From a virus: a stretch of DNA of 64,000 bases. A program made the position numbers and the translations under genes. Below, one piece after another: positions 20,431 through 64,000 of this stretch. The stretch's first letter is position 1. Every line of letters starts with the position of its first letter. The notes below the pieces were generated by a model. It was not told the origin of the DNA. It worked only from the letters and a program-made list of their open reading frames with translations, and did no database searches. Location: positions 1-64,000 of the IMG/VR virus record IMGVR_UViG_3300037010_000365; one strand, 5' to 3'.

Positions 20431-20804
20431 TGTTTGGATCCTTACAACAACGGTTTAACGCAGAACCTATGGAATACACAATATTACCAAGCAAAACTAG
20501 CAATAAAGTTGCAGTATCAACTGAAGTAGTTGATACTTATATTGAAGATGAGCTTAAAGATACAGTAACACAGATTAATGATGCAGCGGATAAAATACTA
20601 AACTTGGCAAAGACAAGTGAGCAACCTAAAGCCTATGAGGTTTATGGTACGCTACTAAAGACTAAAATTGACGCGTTAAAAGAACTAAATAATATCAGAA
20701 AAGGTACTGAAAAGCAGGTTGCTGGCGTTATTAATAATACGCAGATAAATGCGTCAGGTACCAATATCAACGAAATATTAAAGGCGATGCGAACACAACA
20801 ATGA
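20430..20804 (+). CDS. gp16: Terminase small subunit gp16
   Basis: LAKTSEQPKAYEVYGTL motif; directly before the large subunit. Confidence 0.8.
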   Translation: MFGSLQQRFNAEPMEYTILPSKTSNKVAVSTEVVDTYIEDELKDTVTQINDAADKILNLAKTSEQPKAYEVYGTLLKTKIDALKELNNIRKGTEKQVAGVINNTQINASGTNINEILKAMRTQQ

Positions 20805-21292
20805 GTAAAAAAGACATACCCTGGGGTAAATTTGATTTAGCATCAAAGCCAGATGATTCTGTGCTGAACATAGAACCTGATCAAGAAGGGTATTACCATG
20901 ACGCTGCAGGTGAACGGTTTTCATTCAATGGAAATAGAACGCTTAGACCTGCTCATGTTAGAATGCACTTAAATGAATATCATATACAGGAAATCGCTAA
21001 GTGCGCAGAAGATATGAGATATTTCATTTTTAATTATTGTAAAGTACTAACAAGTCGCGGATGGCGTACACCAGATCTCAGAGATTATCAAGAAACATAC
21101 CTAAAAACAGCGCTAACAGATAATAGAATTGTGCTACTCCAAGGCCGGCAATCAGGTAAATGCCAAAATTATAACACGATTATAAATATTCGTAATAAAC
21201 ACACCGGAGAAGTTGAAGCACTCTCTGTTGGTGAATTTCATGAACGAATAAGGAACAAAAATAGTGATCAAACTAAAGAAGTCGATTGTTAA
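20801..21292 (+). CDS. gp17: Terminase large subunit N-fragment fused to the N-half of a split intein
   Basis: FNGNRTL..EIAKCAEDMRYFIFNYC..LRDYQ..GRQSGK, then intein-like CQNYNTIINIR. Confidence 0.85.
   Translation: MSKKDIPWGKFDLASKPDDSVLNIEPDQEGYYHDAAGERFSFNGNRTLRPAHVRMHLNEYHIQEIAKCAEDMRYFIFNYCKVLTSRGWRTPDLRDYQETYLKTALTDNRIVLLQGRQSGKCQNYNTIINIRNKHTGEVEALSVGEFHERIRNKNSDQTKEVDC
21161..21289 (+). mobile_element. Split intein N-fragment (43 aa) at the Walker A site
   Basis: Cys1 immediately after GRQSGK; block-A-like CQNYNTIINIRNKHTGEVEALSVGEFHERI. Confidence 0.8.
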
Positions 21293-21413
21293 AACATTTA
21301 AAATAATATCAGCACCGATTAAACCGTATGATATTATTCCACAAGAAGTTGATTATATATCGCTATGGGTTTAATACTACAGATTGCGTTTGACATTAGT
21401 TCGAGTATAGTAA

Positions 21414-21773
21414 ATGAATTTATCTGATAACACTTACCGTAAATTCACTGAAGTATATGATGTTAGTGATTATGAAGTCCTATCTCATAACGGTTGGGTA
21501 GATATAACACAATCAAATCAGACTGTAGAGTATGAGGTGTACTTATTAGAATTAGAAAATGGTTTATCTCTAGAATGTGCTGATACCCATATTTTGATGA
21601 CTAATGATCTAACCGAAGTATATGCAAAAGACAGTTTGGGTTCGTTGATATACACTAAATCAGGTCCGTCTAAGGTAATATCGGTTAGCAACCTAGGCTA
21701 CTCTGAGCGTATGTATGACCTATCTGTAGGTGGTGATCATACGTATTTCACAAATGATATATTGTCACATAAT
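21414..21773 (+). mobile_element. Split intein C-fragment (120 aa)
   Basis: Block B-like LECADTH, block F MYDLSV, terminal ILSHN followed by Thr+1. Confidence 0.85.
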
Positions 21774-23522
21774 ACAGTTGCGACTGCTCTTTATTTTGTT
21801 TGGGCTGCTACATTTCACAACGACGTTAAAATTGGTATCAGCTCAAACGTAGAGAAAGGTGCTATTGAAGTACTTGATAAAGTTAAAAAGATCTACGGAT
21901 CTTTACCTATTTGGTTGCAACAAGGCGTTGAAAAGTGGAACGTAAAGACCGTCATTTTAGAAAATAAATCCAGTATTATCACATCAGCTACTAACGGAGA
22001 TGCGTTTCGTGGATTCTCGTTTGTAGGCGGTGAAGGATATTCTACATTATATGTAGATGAGTGTGTTGAATATAATACTAAGATTAAAATTCTATCAAGT
22101 ACTACAAAAATATTCGAAGAAGTAAGTATCGGTGATTTATACCGAAGATTTAACACTGACAGTGTTGTGTATGTTTCTGATCTATCCGTGATGACGCAGA
22201 CCGGCATGAGATCTTTTGATGGGATTAAGCGAACTGTTAGATCTGACGGGATTAAGATTAAAACAGCTTCAGGTGAGTTGATCTGTACACCAGAACATTT
22301 ACTGAAAATCGAGAATGGCTTCATTGAAGCTAAAGATTCATTCAATAAATTCATTGATAGCAGTTCGGGCCTTGAATTGGTGACTAGCATAGAGCCGTAT
22401 AACGTTGAATCTGAATACTTCGACCTTATTAATGTTAAAGGCGGTCATACATACTTAACAAATAATATTGTTTCACACAACTGTGCATTTGTTCATGACT
22501 GGCAAGCATTTTCAGACTCGGTATTACCTACCGTATCATCTGACCCTAATGCAAATATTATTTTGACATCCACAGCAAATGGTATGAATCATTTTTATGA
22601 AATGGTTAAACTAGCAAGAGCTAAAATATCTGAATACACACTAATAGAAACGCCATGGAATTGTCTACCAGAGAGAAACGAAGAATGGAAGCAGAAGATA
22701 ATTGCAACTAACGGCATTCAATACTTTAATCAGAACTATGGTAATCAGTTTTTGGGTTCATCATATACGCTTATTAACAGCGAAGGTCTTGAAAAACTTA
22801 TTTCACGCACGCCAATCCAATCAAATGATAATCTTACAATTTATCAAAAACCAATAAAAGGTGCTAAGTATATCATATTAGGTGATCTTGCGTCTGGAGC
22901 TGGTGAAGATTTTTCAGTTTTACAAGTGATTAAACTGAGTAAGCGTAAATTTGAACAAGTTGCGATTTTTAGATCTAAAGATACTCCAGTTCTTAGTATG
23001 CCTTTGGTTATTCAAGAAATTGGTAAAAAATATAATGATGCGTTTGTGTTTATGGAAATCAACTTCGGTGAAGAAGCTGCTAGCAGACTATATCACGACT
23101 TAGAGTATGAAAATCTTTTAACAATTGCGGTTCATAATGGAAAACAAAAGCTACAAGGCTTCCGCGGTAAGATGCAAACAGGTCTTCGGGTTGATGTTAA
23201 AATTAAGCAGACACAACTTAGCTCATTAAAAACGTTAATTGAATCAAATAAGCTTGTAATTAATGACAATACTACTATCTCTGAATTTTATTCATTCGTT
23301 CAGCATGGCATTTCATTCGCTGCAGAAGCAAATAAGCATGATGATTGTGTTATGGCGTTGGCACTATTAGGATGGCTAGTAACTCAGCCTGTATTTTCTG
23401 AAATTATTGATTATGATTACATTGCTGACTATGAGAGTGAAAAATCTGAAGAATTATCAGATTTAATACCTGCCGCGTTTTTTGGGTATAACGACCCAGA
23501 TGAATGGGAAGTTTTTGAATAG
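21414..23522 (+). CDS. gp17: Terminase large subunit C-fragment preceded by the split intein C-half and containing a second intein
   Basis: LPIWLQQGV..WN, AFRGFS, LYVDE/CAFV, IILTSTANGMNHFY, DLASGAGEDFS, HDDCVMAL. Confidence 0.9.
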   Translation: MNLSDNTYRKFTEVYDVSDYEVLSHNGWVDITQSNQTVEYEVYLLELENGLSLECADTHILMTNDLTEVYAKDSLGSLIYTKSGPSKVISVSNLGYSERMYDLSVGGDHTYFTNDILSHNTVATALYFVWAATFHNDVKIGISSNVEKGAIEVLDKVKKIYGSLPIWLQQGVEKWNVKTVILENKSSIITSATNGDAFRGFSFVGGEGYSTLYVDECVEYNTKIKILSSTTKIFEEVSIGDLYRRFNTDSVVYVSDLSVMTQTGMRSFDGIKRTVRSDGIKIKTASGELICTPEHLLKIENGFIEAKDSFNKFIDSSSGLELVTSIEPYNVESEYFDLINVKGGHTYLTNNIVSHNCAFVHDWQAFSDSVLPTVSSDPNANIILTSTANGMNHFYEMVKLARAKISEYTLIETPWNCLPERNEEWKQKIIATNGIQYFNQNYGNQFLGSSYTLINSEGLEKLISRTPIQSNDNLTIYQKPIKGAKYIILGDLASGAGEDFSVLQVIKLSKRKFEQVAIFRSKDTPVLSMPLVIQEIGKKYNDAFVFMEINFGEEAASRLYHDLEYENLLTIAVHNGKQKLQGFRGKMQTGLRVDVKIKQTQLSSLKTLIESNKLVINDNTTISEFYSFVQHGISFAAEANKHDDCVMALALLGWLVTQPVFSEIIDYDYIADYESEKSEELSDLIPAAFFGYNDPDEWEVFE
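22062..22481 (+). mobile_element. Contiguous mini-intein (140 aa, no endonuclease) at the Walker B site
   Basis: CVEYNT start, CTPEH block B, YFDLINV block F, VSHN/C end; removal restores LYVDECAFV. Confidence 0.9.
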
Positions 23523-54778: not shown

Positions 54779-55033
54779 ATGAATTTTGATATAAATAAAC
54801 ATGTTCAAGAAGCTAGAACCCGATATTATGACATGATGATTTTGTTTCAGAATAAAGAATACAAATTAATAAAATCTAAATGCAAACAAATCGCAAGCTT
54901 ACATGGTATTGATTTTGCCGACGAAACTATTTTAGATGAATACAAAAGTAGAATTAGTCATGAATATACTATTAAAGATTTAAGTTTCAATCAACGTAGC
55001 ATTATCGGACCATTAATTAAACCATTAGTATAG
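54779..55033 (+). CDS. Hypothetical protein
   Basis: ATG after AGGA, clear of the tRNA-Cys end. Confidence 0.5.
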   Translation: MNFDINKHVQEARTRYYDMMILFQNKEYKLIKSKCKQIASLHGIDFADETILDEYKSRISHEYTIKDLSFNQRSIIGPLIKPLV

Positions 55034-55263
55034 AAACCTGCGATATTTTGGATTATCAGTTCAATCGCTACAAGGATCATTTAGCATGGTCGATATTTCA
55101 GCTATGGACACGATGGCTGTCTTAGACTACTCTATATCAATTTTGTTTTGATGGTTGCAATCTCAATCCACAAATGCCGTATCTTCCAAACAGCTTCAAA
55201 AATACATGTTTACTTTCATAATAATCTAGTGTATAATAATTCTATCTTAAATGGAGTTATTAT

Positions 55264-55503
55264 ATGATTGTCTATCACGTAACGTGCTTAAGCAAATTAA
55301 ACAAATATCTTGAATCAGGTCATATTCGACCTCCAGTACGCGCTTGGGAAAACATTGAACAAGCTAAAAGAATGAGTTTGTCTACAGGACGTAGAATCAT
55401 CCTTAGACTTAAGTTCCCAGATAATGCCGATAAGTTAGAAGGGCATTTTAATCAAGCACTGGTGTTACAAACACCATATAAAATGGAACCAGGTCATTAC
55501 TAA
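55264..55503 (+). CDS. Hypothetical early protein
   Basis: Early promoter at about 55210-55238; GGAG RBS. Confidence 0.6.
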   Translation: MIVYHVTCLSKLNKYLESGHIRPPVRAWENIEQAKRMSLSTGRRIILRLKFPDNADKLEGHFNQALVLQTPYKMEPGHY

Positions 55504-55630
55504 TATAGCTGGAGTATTTGAAGCTATTTTAGACCGTGCAGTCAAGTACAAAGTACCAGAAGTAGACGTGTCTAAAGTTCTATTGATTTTAATCGATATG
55601 ACTATTATCAGGATTATCATTACTAAATAA

Positions 55631-55710
55631 CCAGCAATCCCGGCTTAATCCAATCAAATTAGATAATAGAATCTATATCTTTTCTTTTTTGGTTAAGCCA
55701 GAGTGCTAGA
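55631..55710 (-). repeat. Dispersed ~75-nt element, copy 3 (inverted)
   Basis: Reverse complement contains GGCTTAACC-AAAAAAGAAAAGATATAGATT-..GGATTAAGCC. Confidence 0.75.
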
Positions 55711-55869
55711 AATGAATTAAAATGTTGTTTATAATATTTCAATAATGTGATATTATGATTATTAGAAGTTAAATCTTCTACATCGCAGTGATTTTACTGC
55801 TTAACCTTGTCCTAATCTCAGCATTAACCTGCCGAGCCAATGACAAAAAACTGAAATAAGGGAGACTAT

Positions 55870-57159
55870 ATGTCTAAAATTAAAGTAGCTATTGTAGGTG
55901 TTGGTAACTGTGCCAAATCATTAGTAGAAGGAATTCAATACTATAACGAAAATCCAAATGATACTGTCGGATTAATGTATCCTGATATTGGCGGCTATAA
56001 ATCTAGCGATATCGAATTTGTTGCTGGTTTTGACGTTGATATTCGTAAAGTTAATAAACCTCTAATTGAAGCTTTGCGAGCTAGTCCAAATTGTGCTATG
56101 GATCACGTTATTGAAATTACTGATAGCGAAATGACATCTTGTGTAACAAAGGGCGCCATGGTTTATTCAGGTCCAACCATGGATGGCGTTGCTCCATACA
56201 TGCTAGACTTTCCAGAAGAAGTATCTTTTCGTATCGGCGCTATTCCAGCAGAACCATTCGATCGAGTTGTCGAATTATTGAAATACCACAAAGTCGATGT
56301 AGTTATTAATTATCTACCAGTCGGGTCTGAAGAAGCTTCTAAGTTTTATATTGACGCAGCTATTAAAGCAAAATGCCACGTTGTTAACTGTATTCCTACA
56401 TTAATTTCAACAGCTGATACTATGGAATATGAACAAAAGTTTATTGATGCTGGGTTGACTATTGTTGGTTCTGATATGCGTTCTGCTTGGGGTGCTAGCC
56501 GATTATCTGAAGTGCTACAGGGTGCTATGCTAGATGCTGGTCTGCTAGTAACACAACATATCCAAATGAATATGGCAGCAGGCACTACGCAAGGTCAAGA
56601 AACCATTAGAACTGGCCGTACGGCAAACACTGATTTTTTAAACATGATTAGCAAGGATCGTTTACACAGCAAACATGTGTCGAAGGAAAATGTCTTGCGT
56701 GGCCAAAATTCCGTTCGAGACGTTGACACTGCTGGCATGACATTATATGCAGGTCCTTCGTTAACGGTTTTACAAAAGCCAGGTGGCCAATACGTTGGTT
56801 CAGATAATAAAATTGCTAATTTGGATCTAGTTGCTTACGGTTTCGGTGGAGCTCGATACGAATTAACTGCACGATTATCTGTACAAGACAGTCCTAATTC
56901 TGGCGGTGTAGTTGTATCAGCTATTCGTTTCTGTAAAGTAGCTAGTGAAATGGGTATTGTTGGATTTTTACGTGGACCTAGCGCTTATACCCAAAAGACA
57001 CCGCCATTACAGCTAAGCTCATCTGATTCAAAATTTGAATGTGACGCTTTGTCTCGTCGTGTGTTAACATCGTTAACAGAACCTCAACTTAAGATTAATA
57101 ACCCAGTCGCAACGGATTTGCCATATACGTTCCAATCAAGTAAAACTGATTATGAATAA
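55870..57159 (+). CDS. ino1: myo-Inositol-1(3)-phosphate synthase, bacterial type
   Basis: KVAIVGVGNCAKSLVEGIQYY, FVAGFDVD, NYLPVGSEEA, NTDFLNM, SKHVSK, DNKIA, DSPNSGG, QKTPP align with actinobacterial Ino1 motifs. Confidence 0.88.
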   Translation: MSKIKVAIVGVGNCAKSLVEGIQYYNENPNDTVGLMYPDIGGYKSSDIEFVAGFDVDIRKVNKPLIEALRASPNCAMDHVIEITDSEMTSCVTKGAMVYSGPTMDGVAPYMLDFPEEVSFRIGAIPAEPFDRVVELLKYHKVDVVINYLPVGSEEASKFYIDAAIKAKCHVVNCIPTLISTADTMEYEQKFIDAGLTIVGSDMRSAWGASRLSEVLQGAMLDAGLLVTQHIQMNMAAGTTQGQETIRTGRTANTDFLNMISKDRLHSKHVSKENVLRGQNSVRDVDTAGMTLYAGPSLTVLQKPGGQYVGSDNKIANLDLVAYGFGGARYELTARLSVQDSPNSGGVVVSAIRFCKVASEMGIVGFLRGPSAYTQKTPPLQLSSSDSKFECDALSRRVLTSLTEPQLKINNPVATDLPYTFQSSKTDYE

Positions 57160-57178
57160 TTGAAGTGGTTTAACAATA

Positions 57179-57568
57179 ATGAATCAAATTTATTCATACG
57201 ACATTGATGGAGTTATTAATTTAGATACTGGACGAATTGGTATTCGTCCAGGGTCTGTTAATGACGTTATTATTTCTGGTAGGTCTACTGACGAACTTAC
57301 TGACACTATAAAGTTTCTTCGAGATAACGGCATTGGTAACTACGTTTATCTTAATCCTATTCCATTCGAAGAAAAGACACGTGTTTTATCAGGTATTCAT
57401 AAAGGTAATACTATTTTAGCTTTGCGTGAATTAGGGTTGAATATCGTGACACATTATGAAGATGATGTAGTTCAAATTGAGCAGATAATGAAGATTGTCC
57501 CAGATTTAATAATTATTCACGTCAATCATAATGGAATTGTAAATTATGAAAACGTTAAAAGAGGTTAA
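57179..57568 (+). CDS. Minimal HAD-superfamily phosphatase
   Basis: YDIDGVI (motif I), ISGR (II), HK (III), YEDD (IV). Confidence 0.75.
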   Translation: MNQIYSYDIDGVINLDTGRIGIRPGSVNDVIISGRSTDELTDTIKFLRDNGIGNYVYLNPIPFEEKTRVLSGIHKGNTILALRELGLNIVTHYEDDVVQIEQIMKIVPDLIIIHVNHNGIVNYENVKRG

Positions 57569-57571
57569 ATA

Positions 57572-58624
57572 ATGAATTACGTATATGGAATCTTAGGTTC
57601 TATACCTAAACTTAAATTCTCTCATAATTCAGCTTATGCAAAAATATGGGCAAACGTTAGTAAATCTTGTATTACTGATGATTTAGATTCTGTTACATCT
57701 TCAGACAATGTTTTGCTGTATTTTGGTGTAGGGTTTAATGGTAAATTATTAAACCTTTTTGACGGTGCTAATTCTAAGTTGTTTAACAGACTTAATGCTT
57801 TCTTATCTTGTCAAGCTGAATTTACTAGTATTGATTTTGATATGCCAGACATTGGAGCTATGCTAACAATTAGAATTGGTAATAATACTACTGATCCGAG
57901 ATTTACTAAAGAGTTTCTTGATAAAATTAGTGATAAGTGTAAAACTGTTAAGCAAATTAACATGAAAGATTTTATTAATGACACTATTGTTATCGGTGAT
58001 TCACATAGTCTTTCAATGACTCCGCTAAATGCACCAGTAATTTATATGACAGGCAAAACAATGTTTGGTATTACTAAATCTGGATTATCAGAAATCGTTG
58101 ATTTGAATAATATCAATAAATTAACTTTATCGTTTGGTAGTATCGATATTCGACATCATTTATTCAGACAGACAAATCCTAATGTAGCTGCTACTAAACT
58201 GGTTACAGATTATCTGAATATGATTACTTTACTGTTAGACTCGCATCTGCAGATTAATATTGAATTATGTTCTACTGTTCCTGTTGAATTCGAAGGTAGA
58301 AAATTGCCAAAAACTGGCTATTATAAAGGTACCCCATTTGCTGGTAACAGACAACAGCGATTAGATGTAACGTTGATGATTAATAACATGCTTAGCGAAT
58401 TTGCAAATATGACAAATAGAGTTTCGTACATGTCATTTCCATTGGAATGGTATGAAATGGATCCTAAACTGTTTGCTGATACTATCATGGAAAGACCTAA
58501 ATCTGTTCATATCGGTTACCCGTTTTATAGACTAAATGATTTTGGTAAAGTAGAGCAGTTCAACGATGAAGAACCAGAGAATAATACAGAAAAACCTATG
58601 TTTTCTGGTCCTACTTTATTCTGA
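57572..58624 (+). CDS. SGNH/GDSL-like protein
   Basis: IVIGDSHS, SFGSIDIRHH, C-terminal SVH; ends in SGPTLF. Confidence 0.5.
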   Translation: MNYVYGILGSIPKLKFSHNSAYAKIWANVSKSCITDDLDSVTSSDNVLLYFGVGFNGKLLNLFDGANSKLFNRLNAFLSCQAEFTSIDFDMPDIGAMLTIRIGNNTTDPRFTKEFLDKISDKCKTVKQINMKDFINDTIVIGDSHSLSMTPLNAPVIYMTGKTMFGITKSGLSEIVDLNNINKLTLSFGSIDIRHHLFRQTNPNVAATKLVTDYLNMITLLLDSHLQINIELCSTVPVEFEGRKLPKTGYYKGTPFAGNRQQRLDVTLMINNMLSEFANMTNRVSYMSFPLEWYEMDPKLFADTIMERPKSVHIGYPFYRLNDFGKVEQFNDEEPENNTEKPMFSGPTLF

Positions 58625-58813
58625 TACTTATTATGGAAATACCATCGAATACACCGTTGAATTTAACCCATGTTAATACTTAATAATTTTGGATTGCTAT
58701 CATCAAGCGCTCCAAAATTATTCTAAACGGTTACAAAATTCTATTAACTAAAATGAGGGGGATATTAAATCATTAAAACACCAAATATTATTTCACATCC
58801 AGATTTTCCAATT

Positions 58814-60076
58814 ATGATGGACCATTGTTTTGTTGGCAAACCTCAAGAACCTGATTTTGATTATACACCAGATTCTTGGTATGATTCTTCTAAAGGGTTC
58901 GATAAAAATATCAATTATTCAAAATTAAGAGTGATTACACCAAAAGTTTCTAAAATATTATGGGAATCCGTTGACAAGGATTTTCTGCATGAAATGCGTA
59001 TGTTTACACATAATGTTCAAAGAACATGGGAAATCCATTATGGTGTAAGACCAGTTGAACATTATATTGCACCAAATCCTGCTCTTGCCCTTGACGTTGA
59101 ATATTTCGGGTTTTGGGTAACCGCAGACGACCGTTTAAGATATATTGCTGAAAATATAACAACTAATCCAGACTTACCATTAATAGACCAGATTGGCAAT
59201 GGTTTAGCATCACATTTTTACGGAGCAAGAAACGTACATAAAGCTATGAATGGCATTGATGATCCTAAAACAGCGTTAGTAAACTACAGTAAATTAGCAG
59301 AAGAACAAATTGAGTTTAAGACGTCTGGTATTATTGGGGAATACACCTTGCATATGAGATCCTTTCTTGAAGAACAGAAGAAGAAAGGTGAAAAACTCTG
59401 GGGAACTACTGAGCTACACACGTCTATCCAAACTGCTGGGCGTCGCTGGTTAAACGAGTGGTATAACGATGATAGACTACATCAAAATAAAGGTTCATCA
59501 AATAACGTTAATGAATGGATTGCTTCGTTTAAGAATTCTGGTTTGCTAGATAAAATGGTAGCTAATTCTGGATTAAAGTCAATGTGTGATATTCTTGGGT
59601 CTGAATGGGGTATCGGCGATTATTACCGGTTTCACGGTGGTTCTGATTTATCATTATGTCCTGAATTAAACGCATATATTGATGAACGATATGTGGTACC
59701 TGGTCCTGGAGCAACATGGACATTAAAAAATCTATATCCAGATTTATCAACTAAAGACGTTTCTCTTGCTGATAGAGTTATTTGGTTTAGAGAAAACCAA
59801 TCATATTTGCTAGGTCTTCCTGAGATTAATCCGTTTTTTCATAAACTGGAAGTCAATGGCATTAACATTTTTCCTGAACCGATTAATGAAATCAAAACAA
59901 CTCAAGCTGAAGTATGTCATTGCCAGTTCGGAATTTATGTAGATTTGCGAGACAATCCACATAAAATCGATAAACGAAAAGTAGCAAGAAACGATAATGC
60001 TACTTGCGCGATTGATAGCGTGCAATCACCGAATAAACGAAAAGCAGAAATTTATTCTGGACCTACTCTATTTTAA
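58814..60076 (+). CDS. aGPT-PPlase / amino acid:DNA transferase-like protein (HhH glycosylase-like fold)
   Basis: GIGDYYRFH..DL, YVVPGPGA, EVCHCQFGIY resemble motifs of the base-hypermodifying transferases; ends in SGPTLF. Confidence 0.6.
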   Translation: MMDHCFVGKPQEPDFDYTPDSWYDSSKGFDKNINYSKLRVITPKVSKILWESVDKDFLHEMRMFTHNVQRTWEIHYGVRPVEHYIAPNPALALDVEYFGFWVTADDRLRYIAENITTNPDLPLIDQIGNGLASHFYGARNVHKAMNGIDDPKTALVNYSKLAEEQIEFKTSGIIGEYTLHMRSFLEEQKKKGEKLWGTTELHTSIQTAGRRWLNEWYNDDRLHQNKGSSNNVNEWIASFKNSGLLDKMVANSGLKSMCDILGSEWGIGDYYRFHGGSDLSLCPELNAYIDERYVVPGPGATWTLKNLYPDLSTKDVSLADRVIWFRENQSYLLGLPEINPFFHKLEVNGINIFPEPINEIKTTQAEVCHCQFGIYVDLRDNPHKIDKRKVARNDNATCAIDSVQSPNKRKAEIYSGPTLF

Positions 60077-60089
60077 TAAAAGGAATTAA

Positions 60090-60584
60090 ATGATAGTTAT
60101 TATTGAAGGACCTGATCGGGTCGGTAAAGATTCACTATTATCTCAAGGGGTTTTTACAGAGTACGAACAGATTCATTGCGGATCACCAAAGCTAAAAACC
60201 AAAGATTATTACTATGGATATTATACTGGTTTATATCAATCATTAAATCAATTGAATACCCGTGTTGTATTAAATCGAAGTTCAATAGGTGAATATGTTT
60301 ATGGACATTTATATCGCAACAACGAATATGAATTGTTAGATATAGTAGATCCTCATCAAATTATTGCAAATCATGAAGTTAGAATAATCACATTAATCGA
60401 TTCAGCTGAAACTTTATTGTCTAGAGAAGACGGTGAATCATTTGGAAAAACGTTACAAGCAAAAAAAGATGAAATTGACCGGTTTATTAAAGTCACCGAA
60501 TTTTTTAATGGGTCAGTTATTAATTGCGCAGGTAAAACTTCTAATGAAGTATACGAAGAAGTTGTAGGAGTTATGTATGGATAG
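60090..60584 (+). CDS. P-loop dNMP (thymidylate-like) kinase
   Basis: IIEGPDRVGKD, LNRSSIGEYVYG. Confidence 0.75.
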   Translation: MIVIIEGPDRVGKDSLLSQGVFTEYEQIHCGSPKLKTKDYYYGYYTGLYQSLNQLNTRVVLNRSSIGEYVYGHLYRNNEYELLDIVDPHQIIANHEVRIITLIDSAETLLSREDGESFGKTLQAKKDEIDRFIKVTEFFNGSVINCAGKTSNEVYEEVVGVMYG

Positions 60585-61269
60585 AGTAAGCGATATTAGA
60601 AATCAGTTGGTAAACCAATATAACACAGGCGATTTTGTTATTGATAAGACTGGTGCAAAAATGGTAGAACTTATCGGCGCTACATTTATCGCTGATGAAG
60701 ATTGGATTATTAGAAAACCAAATATGGAATATGTTAAGCATGAGTTAGATTGGTACGAATCACAAAGCTTGAATGTTTATGATATACCTGGAGTTGTTCC
60801 AGAAATTTGGAAACAGATCGCAGACATGTATGGTAACATTAACTCTAATTATGGTTGGTGTATCTATTCTGATGAAAATTCAGCTCAATTCCAGAAATGC
60901 TTAAACGAATTACTAGCTAATAAATTTAGTCGACGATCAACTATGATTTATAATAGACCGTCTATGCATGAAGACTATAAAGAAAATGGTAAAAATGATT
61001 TTATTTGCACCTACGCTAATCAGTTTTTTATTAGAGACAACAAATTAGTTTCTCATTACATAATGCGGTCAAATGACTCGGTATTTGGGTATTGTAATGA
61101 TTATCAGTGGGCTAAATATGTACAGCAACATATGCTTTCTGAATTGCTATTAGACTATCCAGGTCTTGAGTTAGGCGATATCATATGGACAGCATCAAGT
61201 CTTCATGTATATGAACGACATTTTAAATTTATTGAAGAATATAAAGGAACACAAAATGGCAGTATTTAA
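60577..61269 (+). CDS. gp42: dCMP hydroxymethylase (T4 gp42-like thymidylate synthase homolog)
   Basis: ELDWYESQS, INSNYGW, IYNRPSM, DFICT, MRSNDSVFGYCNDY (Asp at the dCMP specificity position), SLHVYERHF. Confidence 0.88.
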   Translation: MDRVSDIRNQLVNQYNTGDFVIDKTGAKMVELIGATFIADEDWIIRKPNMEYVKHELDWYESQSLNVYDIPGVVPEIWKQIADMYGNINSNYGWCIYSDENSAQFQKCLNELLANKFSRRSTMIYNRPSMHEDYKENGKNDFICTYANQFFIRDNKLVSHYIMRSNDSVFGYCNDYQWAKYVQQHMLSELLLDYPGLELGDIIWTASSLHVYERHFKFIEEYKGTQNGSI

Positions 61270-61792
61270 TCAATGCTCACACTTAGTAAATGAAGAATCA
61301 TTAGCGCAAGTTCGTAACGCGGTGAACTTGTCTAAACATGTAGGTAATAACCCATTTCAATTAGTGCTAGACACTCAATTGAAATTGCAAAAAGAATTAG
61401 CTGCTAAGTTACCAGAAAATGGTAACATTGATCCTGAAAATATGGCCGATTGGGCTACTTGCGGTCAGATGGTAGATTATATGCGTGAACAGAAAGATTC
61501 ACTAGACGACGAGTTCCGTGAATTGCTTACATCATTCGGTGGGATGTCTAACGGTGAAAAATCAGCTACATCAGTCTGGAAGAAGTGGAAAAAAGATAAC
61601 CAGTCTAGACGTAACACTTTATTTTCTGAATTGTCAGAAGAAGATAAATTAGAAGTTTATATGGAATTAATCGATGCTGTTCATTTCTTTGCTAATAAAA
61701 TCAATGCATTAGGTTTAACAGCTGACGATGTTTGTGAGTTGTATCTCATTAAAAATGCTGAAAATTTTAATAGGTATAACGCTGGTTATTAA
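61256..61792 (+). CDS. gp56: dCTPase/dUTPase (T4 gp56-like)
   Basis: FNQCSHL, DEFRELL, WKKWK, MELIDAVHF, LYLIKNAENFNR..GY; ATG at 61256 after AAGGA. Confidence 0.88.
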   Translation: MAVFNQCSHLVNEESLAQVRNAVNLSKHVGNNPFQLVLDTQLKLQKELAAKLPENGNIDPENMADWATCGQMVDYMREQKDSLDDEFRELLTSFGGMSNGEKSATSVWKKWKKDNQSRRNTLFSELSEEDKLEVYMELIDAVHFFANKINALGLTADDVCELYLIKNAENFNRYNAGY

Positions 61793-61876
61793 TTTTATAC
61801 AAAACCGTTTAGTTTTACATCTAAACGGTTTACAAATCATTCGTGATGTAATATAATAATCAAAAAGGAGTACACC

Positions 61877-62510
61877 ATGCAAGATCATACACTGTCAGCT
61901 ATCTATAAAATCATTACAGGTAAAGACGAAGACTTAAAAGTAGACAACTCAGAATTAAACCAGATTGGTACTTAGCACTTTTGATTTAAATCAACTCACT
62001 GTAAACTTGCTCGCAAGCGATGGTAATCTTTATCCGTTTACATACAATTTAAGCAAGGTGGTAAACGGCGATGTTCTGGCATCAGCAACGACTAATATGC
62101 TAATCAAACGCAAATCAAAACAATCGCCAACCAGTATTCGATTTAACGATGTTGCTGTTTGGAATGCACGTGCAAAGATTAACGAAAAGCTTAATACGCT
62201 ACGACGTGAACTAACTAAGAAGTATATTGAACTAAAGCAACAGAAGAATATTCAAGATTATACTCACGAGCAAAAACAATTATATCTGAAGCTTTTAGAG
62301 TTCGAACAGCTTAGCGAAAAGGCTAAAGTTGAGTACGCATCCACATACTTTAAGAATAGCGGTATTAATTTAGATAGCTCTAATGATTATCAGGTTTCAA
62401 TTAACGGTTATACCCAGACATGGAAACACGGCAACCATCAAGAAGTATCTGTAGCTAAATTCGATTGGCATAATATGACCACCCATAATATTCACGGATA
62501 CTCGAATTAA
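61877..62510 (+). pseudogene. Hypothetical gene with an apparent frameshift near 61965
   Basis: AAGGAG RBS and ATG at 61877 give 32 codons then TAG; coding continues in another frame as ORF 61965-62510. Confidence 0.45.
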
Positions 62511-62737
62511 TGGGAAGAGTAGTACACAAATTTTACAGTCTATCCCACACTGATGCTGTCAAGATTATTAAAAAAATTAAAATGCGTAAGAATAAAACGT
62601 TATTTCCTAACGCTTCTTTTGTGTATGAAGAGCTGTCGTCTCTAGATTATGAAAGAACTAGTAATGGATCGACAAATTTGGTACGACCAAATAAAAAAGA
62701 TAGATGCGCTTTGACTGTTGAGTGGGATAAACTATGA
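62510..62737 (+). CDS. Hypothetical protein
   Basis: Translationally coupled ORF. Confidence 0.55.
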   Translation: MGRVVHKFYSLSHTDAVKIIKKIKMRKNKTLFPNASFVYEELSSLDYERTSNGSTNLVRPNKKDRCALTVEWDKL

Positions 62738-63018
62738 AATTAACTGGAATTGTAACAACTCAGAAAGAGTTTGATGTTAGTTTTAATAGTGTTTTACAGT
62801 CAATAAGCAAAGAGTTAACGGGCAGCACAGATTGGCGTGTAGATTATAATGAAGCAACAGGTCAACATCAATACCGTGTATACGAACGTGTATCATGGGA
62901 TGAGTATGATTACGTAACCAAAAGACTAGCAACAGATGAAGAGCAGAAAATCTTTTATGCTATTAACACACTGAAGGAGGTTTATCTTGCAAGAGAGTCT
63001 AACAAAGCACTTAGATGA
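62734..63018 (+). CDS. Hypothetical protein
   Basis: ATGA-coupled ORF. Confidence 0.6.
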   Translation: MKLTGIVTTQKEFDVSFNSVLQSISKELTGSTDWRVDYNEATGQHQYRVYERVSWDEYDYVTKRLATDEEQKIFYAINTLKEVYLARESNKALR

Positions 63019-63451
63019 TGTTGAAATTCCAACATCTTGCAGTTTTGAATATTCAATGTCAAACGGTAATGACCGGCACTACAAGGTAACACTTGGCTGG
63101 TTTGGGTATACAGACAATAAACCTTATTTAAAACGTAAGCTAGTTTACGATATTGTTATTCATATAAAGAGTTTTAACGAGTATTTTGTTTATATTATCG
63201 ATAGCTCGTTTACTGCAACTACATTAATACGAGTTCATATCACCGACGATTATTTTGGCGATGTTAGCGACTTAACTGAAGATGAAAAGATTCAGGTTAA
63301 AGGTTCTATAGGGATGGACATAGTTAAGACTAAAACTATTGCAATGTTAGGGCGGTGTAACATCAAGTACGCGCATATGCTATATGAGATTCATAAATCT
63401 GTTGAAGATCTTGAACAATCAGAACGCCAACAAAATAAAATAATTCATTAA
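62987..63451 (+). CDS. Hypothetical protein
   Basis: AAGGAGG RBS before a TTG start. Confidence 0.55.
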   Translation: MQESLTKHLDDVEIPTSCSFEYSMSNGNDRHYKVTLGWFGYTDNKPYLKRKLVYDIVIHIKSFNEYFVYIIDSSFTATTLIRVHITDDYFGDVSDLTEDEKIQVKGSIGMDIVKTKTIAMLGRCNIKYAHMLYEIHKSVEDLEQSERQQNKIIH

Positions 63452-63474
63452 ACGGTTTACAAATTAACAAAGGT

Positions 63475-63681
63475 GTGGTTACAATGGAAAATAATCAAGA
63501 TAGATTAACACTAGATTGCATTTGTAATCTGTTTATTGATAATTCAGTAGTGTTTATTGATAAGTTTGATATCAAAACCAAAGAGGATGTCTTAACTCTT
63601 GTGTTAAGACATCCAGATATCGCAACAAATTATATCTGGTGCGGATTAAAACATATAGTAAACGGAATACAAGATGTGTAA
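63475..63681 (+). CDS. Hypothetical protein
   Basis: 68 aa ORF in operon context. Confidence 0.45.
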   Translation: MVTMENNQDRLTLDCICNLFIDNSVVFIDKFDIKTKEDVLTLVLRHPDIATNYIWCGLKHIVNGIQDV

Positions 63682-64000
63682 TATTCAAAACTTATCAATG
63701 CTTCAATACTTAGAACGGAAATACACAGCTGATCGTTGTGTTATGATTCGTATCTTCGACAATACGTTTGATAAAGATTTATACCCAACTGCTGTATTCG
63801 ATGGTAGAGATGAGTTAGTTCGAGTGTATACGTTTGACGATGCTGACCGCGGTGAACCGAATACTCTTACTTTGGAAACGGCCAGCGATATTATCGCTGA
63901 TTTAAAATATGCGAAGGAATTGAACAAAGACGTTCGTGTTCATTGCCTAGCAGGCTTATCAAGATCGGGCGCAGTTACTCAGTTTGCAATAGACTATCTT
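63674..64000 (+). CDS. Protein tyrosine / dual-specificity phosphatase, truncated by the window end (not in the ORF track)
   Basis: Own translation contains FDD and VHCLAGLSRSGAV (CX5R motif). Confidence 0.8.
   Translation, partial: MCNIQNLSMLQYLERKYTADRCVMIRIFDNTFDKDLYPTAVFDGRDELVRVYTFDDADRGEPNTLTLETASDIIADLKYAKELNKDVRVHCLAGLSRSGAVTQFAIDYL

Follow-up and report, generated by a model that had tools for sequence, protein, structure and literature searches.

Known hypermodification systems and the gene cluster

Phages M6, ViI, PaMx11 and PhiW-14 hypermodify thymidine by a route with a dUMP hydroxymethylase, a 5-hmdU DNA kinase and the amino-acid:DNA transferase aGPT-Pplase2 of family PF18724 (PMC5889632, PMC8989533, PMC11472151). 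Enzymes of the aGPT-Pplase type take free small-molecule nucleophiles, hydroxyl group included (PMC8989533). T4 fully replaces and decorates its cytosine with gp56, gp42, gp1 and the α- and β-glucosyltransferases. The Aeromonas phages 44RR (44RR2.8t) and 31 possess gene 42 and lack a glucosyltransferase (PMC2993671).

The window analysed here is a stretch of 64,000 nucleotides from an uncultured, T4-like phage whose contig comprises 81,961 bases (∼46% complete). The ORF listing of the window confirmed an earlier note, made from the sequence alone, which had described seven co-oriented genes. They span 55870–61792 on the + strand; read 5'→3', the first four junctions are gaps of 19, 3, 189 and 13 nt and the last two are overlaps. 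The features are:

55870–57159, +, Ino1-like NAD-dependent cyclitol-phosphate synthase (MIPS family), 429 aa; 1GR0, 6K96, PF01658
57179–57568, +, minimal capless HAD-type phosphatase, 129 aa; conserved HAD motifs
57572–58624, +, p350, unassigned N-terminal α/β domain, SGNH/GDSL-fold domain and SGPTLF tail; model and fold matches
58604–58621, +, SGPTLF tail of p350, putative sliding-clamp docking motif; tail motif
58814–60076, +, p420, helix-hairpin-helix (HhH) protein of DNA-glycosylase fold, PF18723, with E366-x3-C370 and SGPTLF tail; Pfam and model
60056–60073, +, SGPTLF tail of p420; tail motif
60090–60584, +, small P-loop NTPase or kinase, 164 aa; Walker A GPDRVGKD
60577–61269, +, gp42-type dCMP hydroxymethylase, 230 aa; T4 1B5E match and specificity Asp
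61256–61792, +, gp56-type dCTP/dCDP pyrophosphatase (MazG-like); full-length dCTPase identity and phrog_173

Six of the seven gene assignments of the earlier note hold, the exception being its "dNMP kinase", a P-loop protein that matches no family. The overall interpretation as an inositol-linked cytosine modification is partly supported. As judged from sequence, with a probability of roughly 0.55, the cluster makes a cyclitol-decorated cytosine: a free cyclitol would be joined to the hydroxymethylcytosine of the DNA, with no nucleotide sugar as donor.

Such a pathway would share with thymidine hypermodification a hydroxymethylpyrimidine that is made as a nucleotide and elaborated on DNA, an HhH-fold transferase with an E-x3-C motif, the use of free small molecules as nucleophiles, a hydroxyl (serine in ViI) among them, and a small P-loop gene adjoining the PF18723 gene, as in gp54-gp55 of M6. 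It would differ in its base, which is cytosine and not uracil, and in using family PF18723 (clade 1) instead of PF18724. The window furthermore adds an SGNH-fold partner and nucleophile biosynthesis genes (Ino1, HAD), its enzymes bear putative clamp-docking tails and its P-loop protein is unlike PF18748.

Hydroxymethylcytosine route

The gp42-like protein matches T4 dCMP hydroxymethylase (1B5E) with an E-value of 3e-68 and 233 bits. The Asp that had been claimed to mark dCMP specificity is present, as the last Asp of RSNDSVFGYCND (C-N-D motif) aligns with T4 Asp179, and the RSND..(F/Y)G..ND motif occurs in 47 of 50 gp42 homologues adjoining Ino1. The longest ORF of the gp56-like gene begins at 61205, its likely true start being 61256. 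The protein is 45–53% identical over its full length to dCTPases of T4-like phages and matches phrog_173 at 6e-27. With the 1B5E match and the dCTPase identity, the proposed gp42 and gp56 route to 5-hydroxymethylcytosine holds, and the phage almost certainly puts this base into its DNA.

GT1, GT2, T4 α-GT, T4 β-GT and ADDT had no match in the 81,961-base contig (∼46% complete), in agreement with the earlier observation that no T4-type glucosyltransferase is visible. A GT1-family glycosyltransferase was found neither there nor in five related contigs (54–83% complete). The locus shares with T4 clear homologues of gp42 and gp56 and, by its predicted purpose, a cytosine that is fully replaced and decorated, but no glycosyltransferase was found in the contig and the decoration step would use unrelated folds. 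Lacking an anomeric carbon, a cyclitol cannot act as glycosyl donor, and a glycosyltransferase cannot deliver it from a nucleotide sugar.

Ino1-like synthase and HAD phosphatase

The Ino1-like protein matches M. tuberculosis inositol-3-phosphate synthase (1GR0) over its full length with an E-value of 1.3e-58 and the five-membered cyclitol-phosphate synthase 6K96 at 9e-31. It scores 31.4 bits on PF01658 (cut-off 27), but only 237 bits on the NCBI equivalog TIGR03450, far under the cut-off of 638. All of 11 phage homologues keep the N-terminal G-x-G-x-x-A motif and the Lys/Asp columns that align with the active site of M. tuberculosis Ino1. A 15-residue insert at approx. residues 236–250 lies in the N-x-G-G-N-x-D active-site loop and is absent from Moby, Cr30, M. 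tuberculosis Ino1 and Ari2.

In the HAD-like protein, D8-x-D10-G-V, T33-G-R, K75 and E94-D95-D96 are fully or almost fully conserved among 10 homologues, and DxDGV is found in 81 of 81 HAD homologues adjoining Ino1; the sole profile match is weak (phrog_415, 1.2e-4). Compared to the known pair of Ino1 and inositol monophosphatase, full-length homology, NAD-binding motif and Lys/Asp columns are common, and both place the phosphatase after the synthase. The window differs by its sub-cut-off synthase with the loop insert, by a phosphatase that is a minimal HAD and not of IMPase fold, and by its context, which is DNA modification. Of the earlier proposal that both enzymes make myo-inositol or its phosphate, the MIPS-family and HAD identities stood, while the product may be another cyclitol because of the low equivalog score and the loop insert.

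p350, p420 and the P-loop protein

The model of p420 has a pLDDT of 85.5, and the best 23 structures in a VIA comparison were all of HhH-glycosylase fold, including PaMx11 gp46 (8z2m, Z 8.4, 222 aligned). It scores 28 bits on PF18723 HMUDK_hel (cut-off 25), the former aGPT-Pplase clade 1, and this family is matched by 17 of 17 aligned homologues (best 1.6e-17). An assignment to the characterised amino-acid:DNA transferases of PF18724 was rejected, since p420 had no match to them at E ≤ 1 and belongs to clade 1 like M6 gp55 (hhalign E 2.4e-4; GxG, GPGA and E..C motifs aligned). The earlier note, which had called it aGPT-PPlase-like, was thus right on the kind of catalyst, one for free nucleophiles, but the clade is not the characterised one. 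M6 gp55 is dispensable for kinase and transferase activity in the in vitro M6 reaction, so PF18723 has no member of proven activity. By model and motifs, p420 looks catalytically competent: E366-x3-C370-Q-F corresponds to E243-x3-C247-K-W of M6 gp51, and the E-x3-C motif is common to this and other ADDT proteins. Both E243 and C247 are essential in M6 gp51 (PMC8989533; Cys247 in PMC11472151).

The model of p350 (pLDDT 84.3) has an SGNH/GDSL fold at residues 136–326, with VIA similarity to 7e16 (Z 14.4, rmsd 2.9, 165 aligned) and to OatA/PatB O-acetyltransferases (Z ∼11); Foldseek returned SGNH esterases with a probability of 1.00. G142-D-S-H145 and G189-N-I-D-I-R-H-H196 are invariant among homologues, and the protein matches phrog_13881 and, within phrog_17781, the N-terminal half. 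Among 78 further loci, 66 have p350 beside gp42 but lack Ino1, HAD and p420, and a weak PALP-type PLP enzyme often comes next. The function of p350 is therefore not tied to inositol, and p350 alone may make a different modification.

Both proteins end in SGPTLF. A tail of L-x-x-F-[FLMI] type closes 47 of 53 p350 homologues (as T-L-E-E-F-F-like endings), 52 of 57 p420 homologues and likewise polymerase (25/25), TET (7/7) and DpdA (4/4). The motif occurs in 10 of 1045 other ORFs (1%) and in none of 87 Ino1, 76 HAD and 51 gp42 proteins. Polymerase and clamp genes are absent from the 82 kb contig of the window phage, and the match to the DNA polymerase tail was seen in related contigs only. The tails suggest that p350 and p420 are putative DNA-acting proteins.

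The P-loop protein carries the Walker A motif GPDRVGKD, matches no Pfam, NCBIfam or PDB family nor PF18748, and one distant phage homologue was found. It could be a DNA base kinase rather than a dNMP kinase.

Synteny across phages

The survey comprised 86 Ino1-bearing phage loci, 78 of them with enough flank. Sixty-four carry p420 and/or p350, ten TET/JBP and/or ADDT and four the 7-deazaguanine genes FolE/DpdA/QueC; in the remaining eight the downstream flank is ≤1.1 kb, and gp42 is present in six of these. The synteny of ino1 with modification genes, on which the earlier note had made its proposal depend, was accordingly found in 78 of 78 loci with enough flank, a co-location that is inflated because the clusters all lie in the variable region near replication genes (polymerase, UvsX, gp41) of T4-like genomes.

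Ino1 and HAD are direct neighbours in the window and lie a short distance apart in almost every related locus. The neighbourhood is kept between lineages while gene order shifts, with interleaved orders such as FolE-Ino1-HAD-QueC, p350-Ino1-HAD-p420 and ADDT-Ino1-HAD-kinase. In TET-type loci, Ino1 directly adjoins the PF18724 ADDT, without p350; this ADDT is an experimentally defined nucleophile:DNA transferase family. Some Ino1 loci additionally encode an FkbM methyltransferase or a C5-methyltransferase-like protein. Ino1 identity amounts to 75–84%, compared to 23–40% for the neighbours. The DNA of RP13, a cultured Ino1 carrier, is reported to be heavily modified (PMC12686479).

Proposed pathway and alternatives

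Going by the close T4 homologues, the gp56-type dCTPase would deplete dCTP and yield dCMP, which the gp42-type enzyme would turn into 5-hydroxymethyl-dCMP for conversion by kinases to the triphosphate and incorporation by the polymerase. The Ino1-like enzyme would produce a cyclitol phosphate by ring closure of a sugar phosphate, glucose-6-phosphate in the simplest case, and the HAD phosphatase would release the free cyclitol, either myo-inositol or a closely related compound. With their tails keeping them at the sliding clamp, p350 and p420 would then act on DNA: p420 would flip hydroxymethylcytosine out and Cys370, assisted by Glu366, would attack C6, so that the activated 5-CH2-O group is lost to give an exocyclic methylene. 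Addition of a cyclitol hydroxyl would result in ether-linked 5-(cyclityl-oxymethyl)cytosine. Clade 2 aGPT-Pplases run the same chemistry with free glycine, serine or putrescine. More speculatively, either p350, working as an SGNH-type acyl transferase, or the P-loop protein, as a base kinase, might provide the leaving group. The modified base, if true, would protect the DNA from restriction enzymes and other defences that target DNA. No description of a cyclitol-decorated DNA base was found in the literature. The recurrence of the linkage in dozens of other phage contigs points to such a base, while the presence of Ino1-HAD in 7-deazaguanine clusters, where the proposed chemistry is not obviously applicable, speaks against the proposal.

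It is possible, if unlikely, that p350 and p420 put a non-cyclitol group, e.g. acyl or amino-acid-derived, on hydroxymethylcytosine, with Ino1-HAD serving late optional tailoring or another acceptor. The p350-gp42 loci without Ino1 argue for this, as do the SGNH fold, which is typical of acyl esterases and transferases, and the additional methyltransferases, which suggest multi-step tailoring. However, p420 in viral contigs is always beside Ino1-HAD, save for the Aeromonas fusion by a solute symporter, and the direct ADDT-Ino1 neighbourhood of the p350-free TET-type loci also points to the cyclitol. Quite doubtful is a reading of Ino1-HAD as auxiliary metabolic genes with no link to DNA (osmolyte, lipid head group or glucose-6-phosphate drain), which merely sit in this known variable region, where DNA-modification genes also gather. 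The far stronger conservation of Ino1 than of its neighbours would fit a free-standing metabolic enzyme, and neither Ino1 nor HAD has a clamp tail, but the latter is as expected for small-molecule enzymes. All 78 loci with enough flank place the pair in or beside DNA-modification genes of three unrelated kinds, often interleaved, and the adjacency outlasts repeated reshuffling of gene order.

We consider it improbable that the product of the Ino1-like enzyme is a carbocycle other than inositol or that the phosphate is retained, so that the base carries a cyclitol phosphate or phosphodiester-linked group and HAD acts at another step. The similarity to the MIPS homologue Ari2 (6K96), which makes a five-membered cyclitol phosphate, the loop insert and the equivalog score are compatible with it, and hypermodifications that contain phosphate are found in Carin-5 and YerA41, phages of the RP13 type. 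The invariant Lys and Asp columns and the canonical loop in Moby and Cr30 argue against it, and the universal phosphatase pairing favours a dephosphorylated product.

For the preferred cyclitol-decorated cytosine, the Aeromonas phages 44RR2.8t and 31 offer a further comparison. Their ORF233c (795 aa, phrog_17781) fuses p350-like and p420-like halves and ends in the clamp-type tail SLDGLFAI, although its identity to the window proteins is merely 23–29%. Like the window, they have gene 42; they also lack a glucosyltransferase, none having been found in the contig of the window phage either, but they are without Ino1 or HAD. A sodium:solute symporter of sugar/polyol type adjoins the fusion instead, which is consistent with a nucleophile that is imported rather than made.

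The gene cluster and its phage

Seven plus-strand open reading frames (ORFs) pack positions 55870-61792, with very short gaps except for 189 nt ahead of the fourth gene. The seven-gene cluster claimed in the earlier note was confirmed by gene calls and homology. Its members are:

First gene, plus strand: Ino1-like synthase
Second gene, plus strand: HAD-like protein of 129 residues
57572-58624, plus strand: p350, SGNH-fold protein
58814-60076, plus strand: p420, helix-hairpin-helix (HhH) protein of PF18723
Fifth gene, plus strand: P-loop protein of 164 residues
60577-61269, plus strand: gp42-like protein
Last gene, most likely start 61256, plus strand: gp56-like protein

The phage is a T4-superfamily myovirus. 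Its record comprises 81,961 bases, of which the window is the initial 64 kb, and has an estimated completeness of 46% (CheckV). Genes for portal, major head protein, sheath, large terminase, UvsW-like helicase, gp46-like nuclease and UvsX are present, and RNA ligases, polynucleotide kinase and NrdAB are found further downstream. The major head protein is ~48% identical to its counterparts in pelagimyophage HTVC008M, OM43 phage Melnitz and Pseudomonas phage pf16. No cultured phage matched the cluster in Megablast. The T4-type late box (TATAAATA) was not found in 54798-64000, while 12 of the 16 plus-strand late boxes sit in the structural region (3-31 kb), which fits early or middle expression of the cluster. 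Promoter and terminator signals in the cluster did not exceed the shuffled expectation.

Hydroxymethylcytosine genes

The gp42-like protein matched T4 dCMP hydroxymethylase (1B5E) with E 3e-68 and 233 bits, compared to ~34 bits for the next-best thymidylate synthases in the PDB. The Asp of its C-N-D motif aligns with T4 Asp179 (the Asn177 position of E. coli ThyA), which selects dCMP over dUMP; it is also found in certain thymidylate synthase homologues (RB69 gp48-type) whose product is instead 5-hydroxy-dCMP (PMC13326640). The latter activity was judged unlikely, given the much greater similarity of the protein to T4 gp42 than to PDB thymidylate synthases or CMP hydroxymethylase. The difference in score points to hydroxymethylation, and the enzyme likely makes 5-hydroxymethyl-dCMP. 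The gp56-like protein is 45-53% identical over residues 1-178 (full length) to gp56 dCTPases of T4-like phages.

The P-loop protein obtained no family assignment from Pfam, NCBIfam or PDB, and none of the related loci contained a homologue. A relationship to the 5-hmdU DNA kinases (PF18748) was considered and is unsupported, since the protein matched no Pfam family and showed no BLASTP similarity to the M6 kinase gp54. Searches of PDB sequences with the P-loop and gp56-like proteins returned nothing usable.

Ino1-like synthase and HAD-like phosphatase

Residues 3-386 of the Ino1-like protein matched inositol-3-phosphate synthase from M. tuberculosis (1GR0, E 1.3e-58), and the protein also matched the five-membered cyclitol-phosphate synthase 6K96. 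Its score exceeded the gathering cut-off of PF01658; on TIGR03450 it reached 237.4 bits, well under the NCBI equivalog cut-off of 638. Eleven residues (G10, G12, D202, S205, N253, D255, K272, D312, K314, D340 and K376) are invariant across 11 phage homologues and align with identical residues in 1GR0. The G-x-G-x-x-A motif and the conserved Lys and Asp columns correspond to the NAD-binding and active-site residues of MIPS. The N-x-G-G-N-x-D active-site loop is interrupted by a 15-residue insert (AAGTTQGQETIRTGR), which is absent from the homologues of the cultured phages Moby and Cr30 as well as from 1GR0 and 6K96. Judged by its sequence, the protein is a cyclitol-phosphate synthase whose cyclitol is probably inositol.

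In the HAD-like protein, the four HAD motifs (D8-I-D10-G-V, T33-G-R, K75 and E94-D95-D96) show little or no variation. Its sole profile match was weak (phrog_415, 1.2e-4); there was none among Pfam, NCBIfam and PDB profiles, and a search of PDB sequences with its profile returned nothing usable.

p420 is a clade 1 aGPT-Pplase relative

p420 scored 28 bits on PF18723 (HMUDK_hel; cut-off 25), and all 17 aligned homologues matched this family, the best with 1.6e-17. The reference member M6 gp55, a clade 1 aGPT-Pplase that adjoins the M6 base kinase gp54, scores 189.9 bits. The model of p420 (pLDDT 85.5) aligned best to HhH glycosylase-fold proteins in the exhaustive aligner VIA: the first 23 rows all had this fold, after which Z falls to 4.1. 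Among them was the 5-PmdU glycinyltransferase PaMx11 gp46 (8z2m; Z 8.4, rmsd 4.3, 222 residues aligned). The fold was visible only with this aligner, as Foldseek against the PDB gave nothing at E<=0.001; the sequence search of PDB sequences gave nothing usable either. E366 and C370 are invariant and form an E-x3-C-x-aromatic motif near the C-terminus. E-x3-C is also present in M6 gp51 (E243/C247), M6 gp55 and three amino-acid:DNA transferases (ADDT). Both residues are essential in M6 gp51 (PMC8989533), and C247 is the proposed C6 nucleophile in PaMx11 gp46 (PMC11472151).

An assignment of p420 to the ADDT family itself (PF18724, clade 2) was rejected: none of the 17 members matched at E<=1, and hhalign to M6 gp51 gave a probability of 0.6%. 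The aGPT-PPlase-like enzyme proposed earlier is thus retained as to PF18723 clade 1, HhH fold and E-x3-C motif, but not as a match to ADDT.

p350 is a widespread SGNH-fold protein

Residues 136-326 of p350 adopt an SGNH/GDSL fold in the model (pLDDT 84) and are preceded by ~130 N-terminal residues without family match. VIA aligned 73 chains at Z>=8, with Z 14.4 for 7e16 and ~11 for the peptidoglycan O-acetyltransferases OatA and PatB, while a sequence search of PDB sequences gave nothing usable. Block I (G142-D-S-H) is invariant among the homologues. Other invariant residues, namely M306-E307-x-P-x-S-x-H313 and D192...H195-H196, differ from the canonical block V DxxH.

With at least 578 viral relatives, the family extends far beyond Ino1. 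Among 78 further loci, 66 have p350 adjoining gp42 without Ino1, HAD or p420, and p350 can therefore be regarded as a general hydroxymethylcytosine partner. p420 and Ino1-HAD would then be one among several modules that join it. p350 might catalyse the initial step shared by these modules, acting on the hydroxymethyl group, perhaps via acyl transfer, and would so fill the role that the base kinase has for thymidine; both suggestions are speculative.

In the Ino1-free loci, the product of the next gene often shows a weak resemblance to PALP-type PLP enzymes. These genes were considered as divergent p420, which was rejected as the p420 HMM found none and weak PALP matches were obtained instead. 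The order is polymerase ... gp42-p350 followed by a weakly PALP-like protein of 294-324 residues (L091-L165, e.g. L102:5799-8831 and L147:6264-8877). This arrangement suggests a distinct hydroxymethylcytosine modification, as yet undescribed.

Clamp-type tails

p350 and p420 both end with SGPTLF. No other ORF of the contig has such an end, and this variant is present only on these two proteins. In T4 and RB69, the C-terminal tail of the DNA polymerase docks on the sliding clamp. The tail motif, counted over related loci as L-x-x-F-[FLMI] plus 0-2 residues, was distributed as follows.

Clamp-type C-terminal tails in related loci (ORFs with tail/ORFs)
DNA polymerase: 25/25
p420: 52/57
p350: 47/53
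C5-methyltransferase-like: 29/34
TET/JBP: 7/7
DpdA: 4/4
Ino1: 0/87
HAD: 0/76
gp42: 0/51
Other ORFs: 10/1045 (background 1%)

The match of p350 and p420 tails to the DNA polymerase holds in related contigs; the contig contains neither the polymerase nor the clamp of this phage. From these termini we infer that p350 and p420 would be DNA-directed enzymes recruited to the clamp. The tails on p350, p420, TET, DpdA and the C5-methyltransferase-like protein suggest a general coupling of modification to replication.

In Stenotrophomonas phage Moby, the terminus of DpdA (..SLDDLFG) resembles that of the DNA polymerase (..SLEDLFGW). A clamp-type tail is also present on a C5 cytosine DNA methyltransferase-like protein, which was found at L035:13724-14953 and in 39 other loci, but not in the contig of the window. 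In most of those marine loci that should lack unmodified C in their DNA, its gene adjoins p350, and the protein may do other chemistry at C5.

Ino1 lies beside DNA modification genes

A protein search found more than 6,700 Ino1 homologues at E<=1e-20, which is a lower bound. Viral contigs scanned with the Ino1 protein yielded 191 relatives (75-84% identity), 80 of which were kept; synteny was computed over 86 Ino1-bearing loci.

Neighbours of Ino1 in 86 viral loci
p420 and/or p350: 64/86, with gp42 within reach in 44 of the 64
TET/JBP dioxygenase and/or PF18724 ADDT: 10/86, including cultured Cr30 and RP13
FolE/DpdA/QueC 7-deazaguanine genes: 4/86, including cultured Moby
No modification neighbour seen: 8/86, all with <=1.1 kb downstream flank; 6/8 have gp42

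The synteny of ino1 with modification genes, which had been set as a test beforehand, clearly holds with 78 of 86 loci (64, 10 and 4). Nearly every locus pairs Ino1 with a small HAD gene, whose product invariably contains DxDGV. Gene order varies by lineage while the neighbourhood is kept, as in gp42-DUF6552-Ino1-HAD-p420-p350-C5-methyltransferase-like, p350-Ino1-HAD-p420, p350-Ino1-HAD-FkbM-p420 and TET-ADDT-Ino1-HAD-Ploopntkinase3. Cultured phages with Ino1 include Caulobacter phage Cr30, the Stenotrophomonas phages Moby and IME-SM1, and Ralstonia phage RP13. The DNA of RP13 was reported as heavily modified (PMC12686479).

A second cluster type (L016:5441-13550, L029:7319-12224 and L003, which is Cr30, :6732-12599) consists of TET/JBP dioxygenase, PF18724 ADDT, Ino1, HAD and a small P-loop kinase (PF18751 Ploopntkinase3). 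L016 has an extra GT4, and the Cr30 version reads ADDT-TAGT-like-Ino1. In Moby (L002:8207-13621) and at L006:6601-15718, Ino1-HAD is interleaved with the 7-deazaguanine genes FolE, DpdA, QueC and QueE. An FkbM-type methyltransferase is located between HAD and p420 at L086:9303-9986 and in ~14 other loci, and may O-methylate the cyclitol.

In the Aeromonas phages 44RR2.8t and 31, the p350-like and p420-like halves are fused to one protein of 795 residues with a clamp-type tail, and the fusion adjoins a sodium:solute symporter of sugar/polyol (YidK-like) type. These phages and phage 25 contain gene 42 and gene 56 and no glucosyltransferase (PMC2993671). Fusion and neighbouring symporter, together with the missing glucosyltransferase, fit import rather than synthesis of the attached group.

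Proposed chemistry and significance

There is a strong genomic case for a predicted modification that links a cyclitol to hydroxymethylcytosine in DNA. It partly supports the inositol-linked cytosine modification proposed in the earlier note; the steps beyond hydroxymethylcytosine are inferred. A cyclitol has no anomeric carbon and so cannot be delivered by a glycosyltransferase. In the aGPT-Pplase mechanism, the base is activated and a free nucleophile is accepted, including a hydroxyl (serine in ViI) (PMC8989533). A free cyclitol requires just this kind of chemistry, and this is considered the strongest argument. The cyclitol would accordingly be attached by such a route, from an activated base and a free cyclitol hydroxyl.

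In the most far-reaching reading, to which we assign a probability of roughly 45%, Ino1-HAD would be a portable nucleophile module that provides free cyclitol to clamp-tethered DNA transferases and, without a nucleotide-activated donor, gives rise to cyclitol-ether pyrimidines, in this phage 5-(inosityl-oxymethyl)cytosine. It would be plugged into at least three systems (gp42 with PF18723/SGNH, TET/JBP with ADDT, and 7-deazaguanine) and be abundant in uncultured T4-like phages. The proposed chemistry would be a case of post-replicative hydroxymethylpyrimidine elaboration by HhH-fold transferases. The product would be isobaric with glucosyl-hmdC (257 + 180 - 18 = 419 Da, calculated); as an inositol ether it would resist glycosidases, and mass-spectrometry surveys may already have misread it.

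No description of an inositol- or cyclitol-bearing DNA base was found in the literature searched on phage DNA modification, Ino1 and aGPT-Pplase. If the chemistry holds, it would be the first carbocyclic polyol on a DNA base. It would likewise extend the kinase/aGPT-Pplase route, known for thymidine alone, to cytosine for the first time, and it would provide a function for PF18723, no member of which has a proven activity, and for the very large phage SGNH family. Furthermore, it would show what stands in for glucosylation in the many gene-42 phages without glucosyltransferases, a question that goes back to at least 2010 (PMC2993671). Given the size and high conservation of the Ino1 family in metagenomes, the base could be common in nature.

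Other features of the contig

Within the window, the ORF at 47207-48217 matches phrog_850 (RNA-binding protein, E 6e-84). In the 702-residue ORF at 21414-23522, residues 116-248 and 357-658 match the terminase large subunit, and a separate ORF of 163 residues lies immediately upstream of it (both within 20801-23522). Beyond the window, contig positions 64604-69911 (L004:2604-7911) encode an RNA repair set of two RNA ligases, phosphoesterase, polynucleotide kinase and tRNA nucleotidyltransferase. At 71680-75415 (L004:9680-13415), two ORFs with a homing-endonuclease gene between them encode the large subunit of ribonucleotide reductase.
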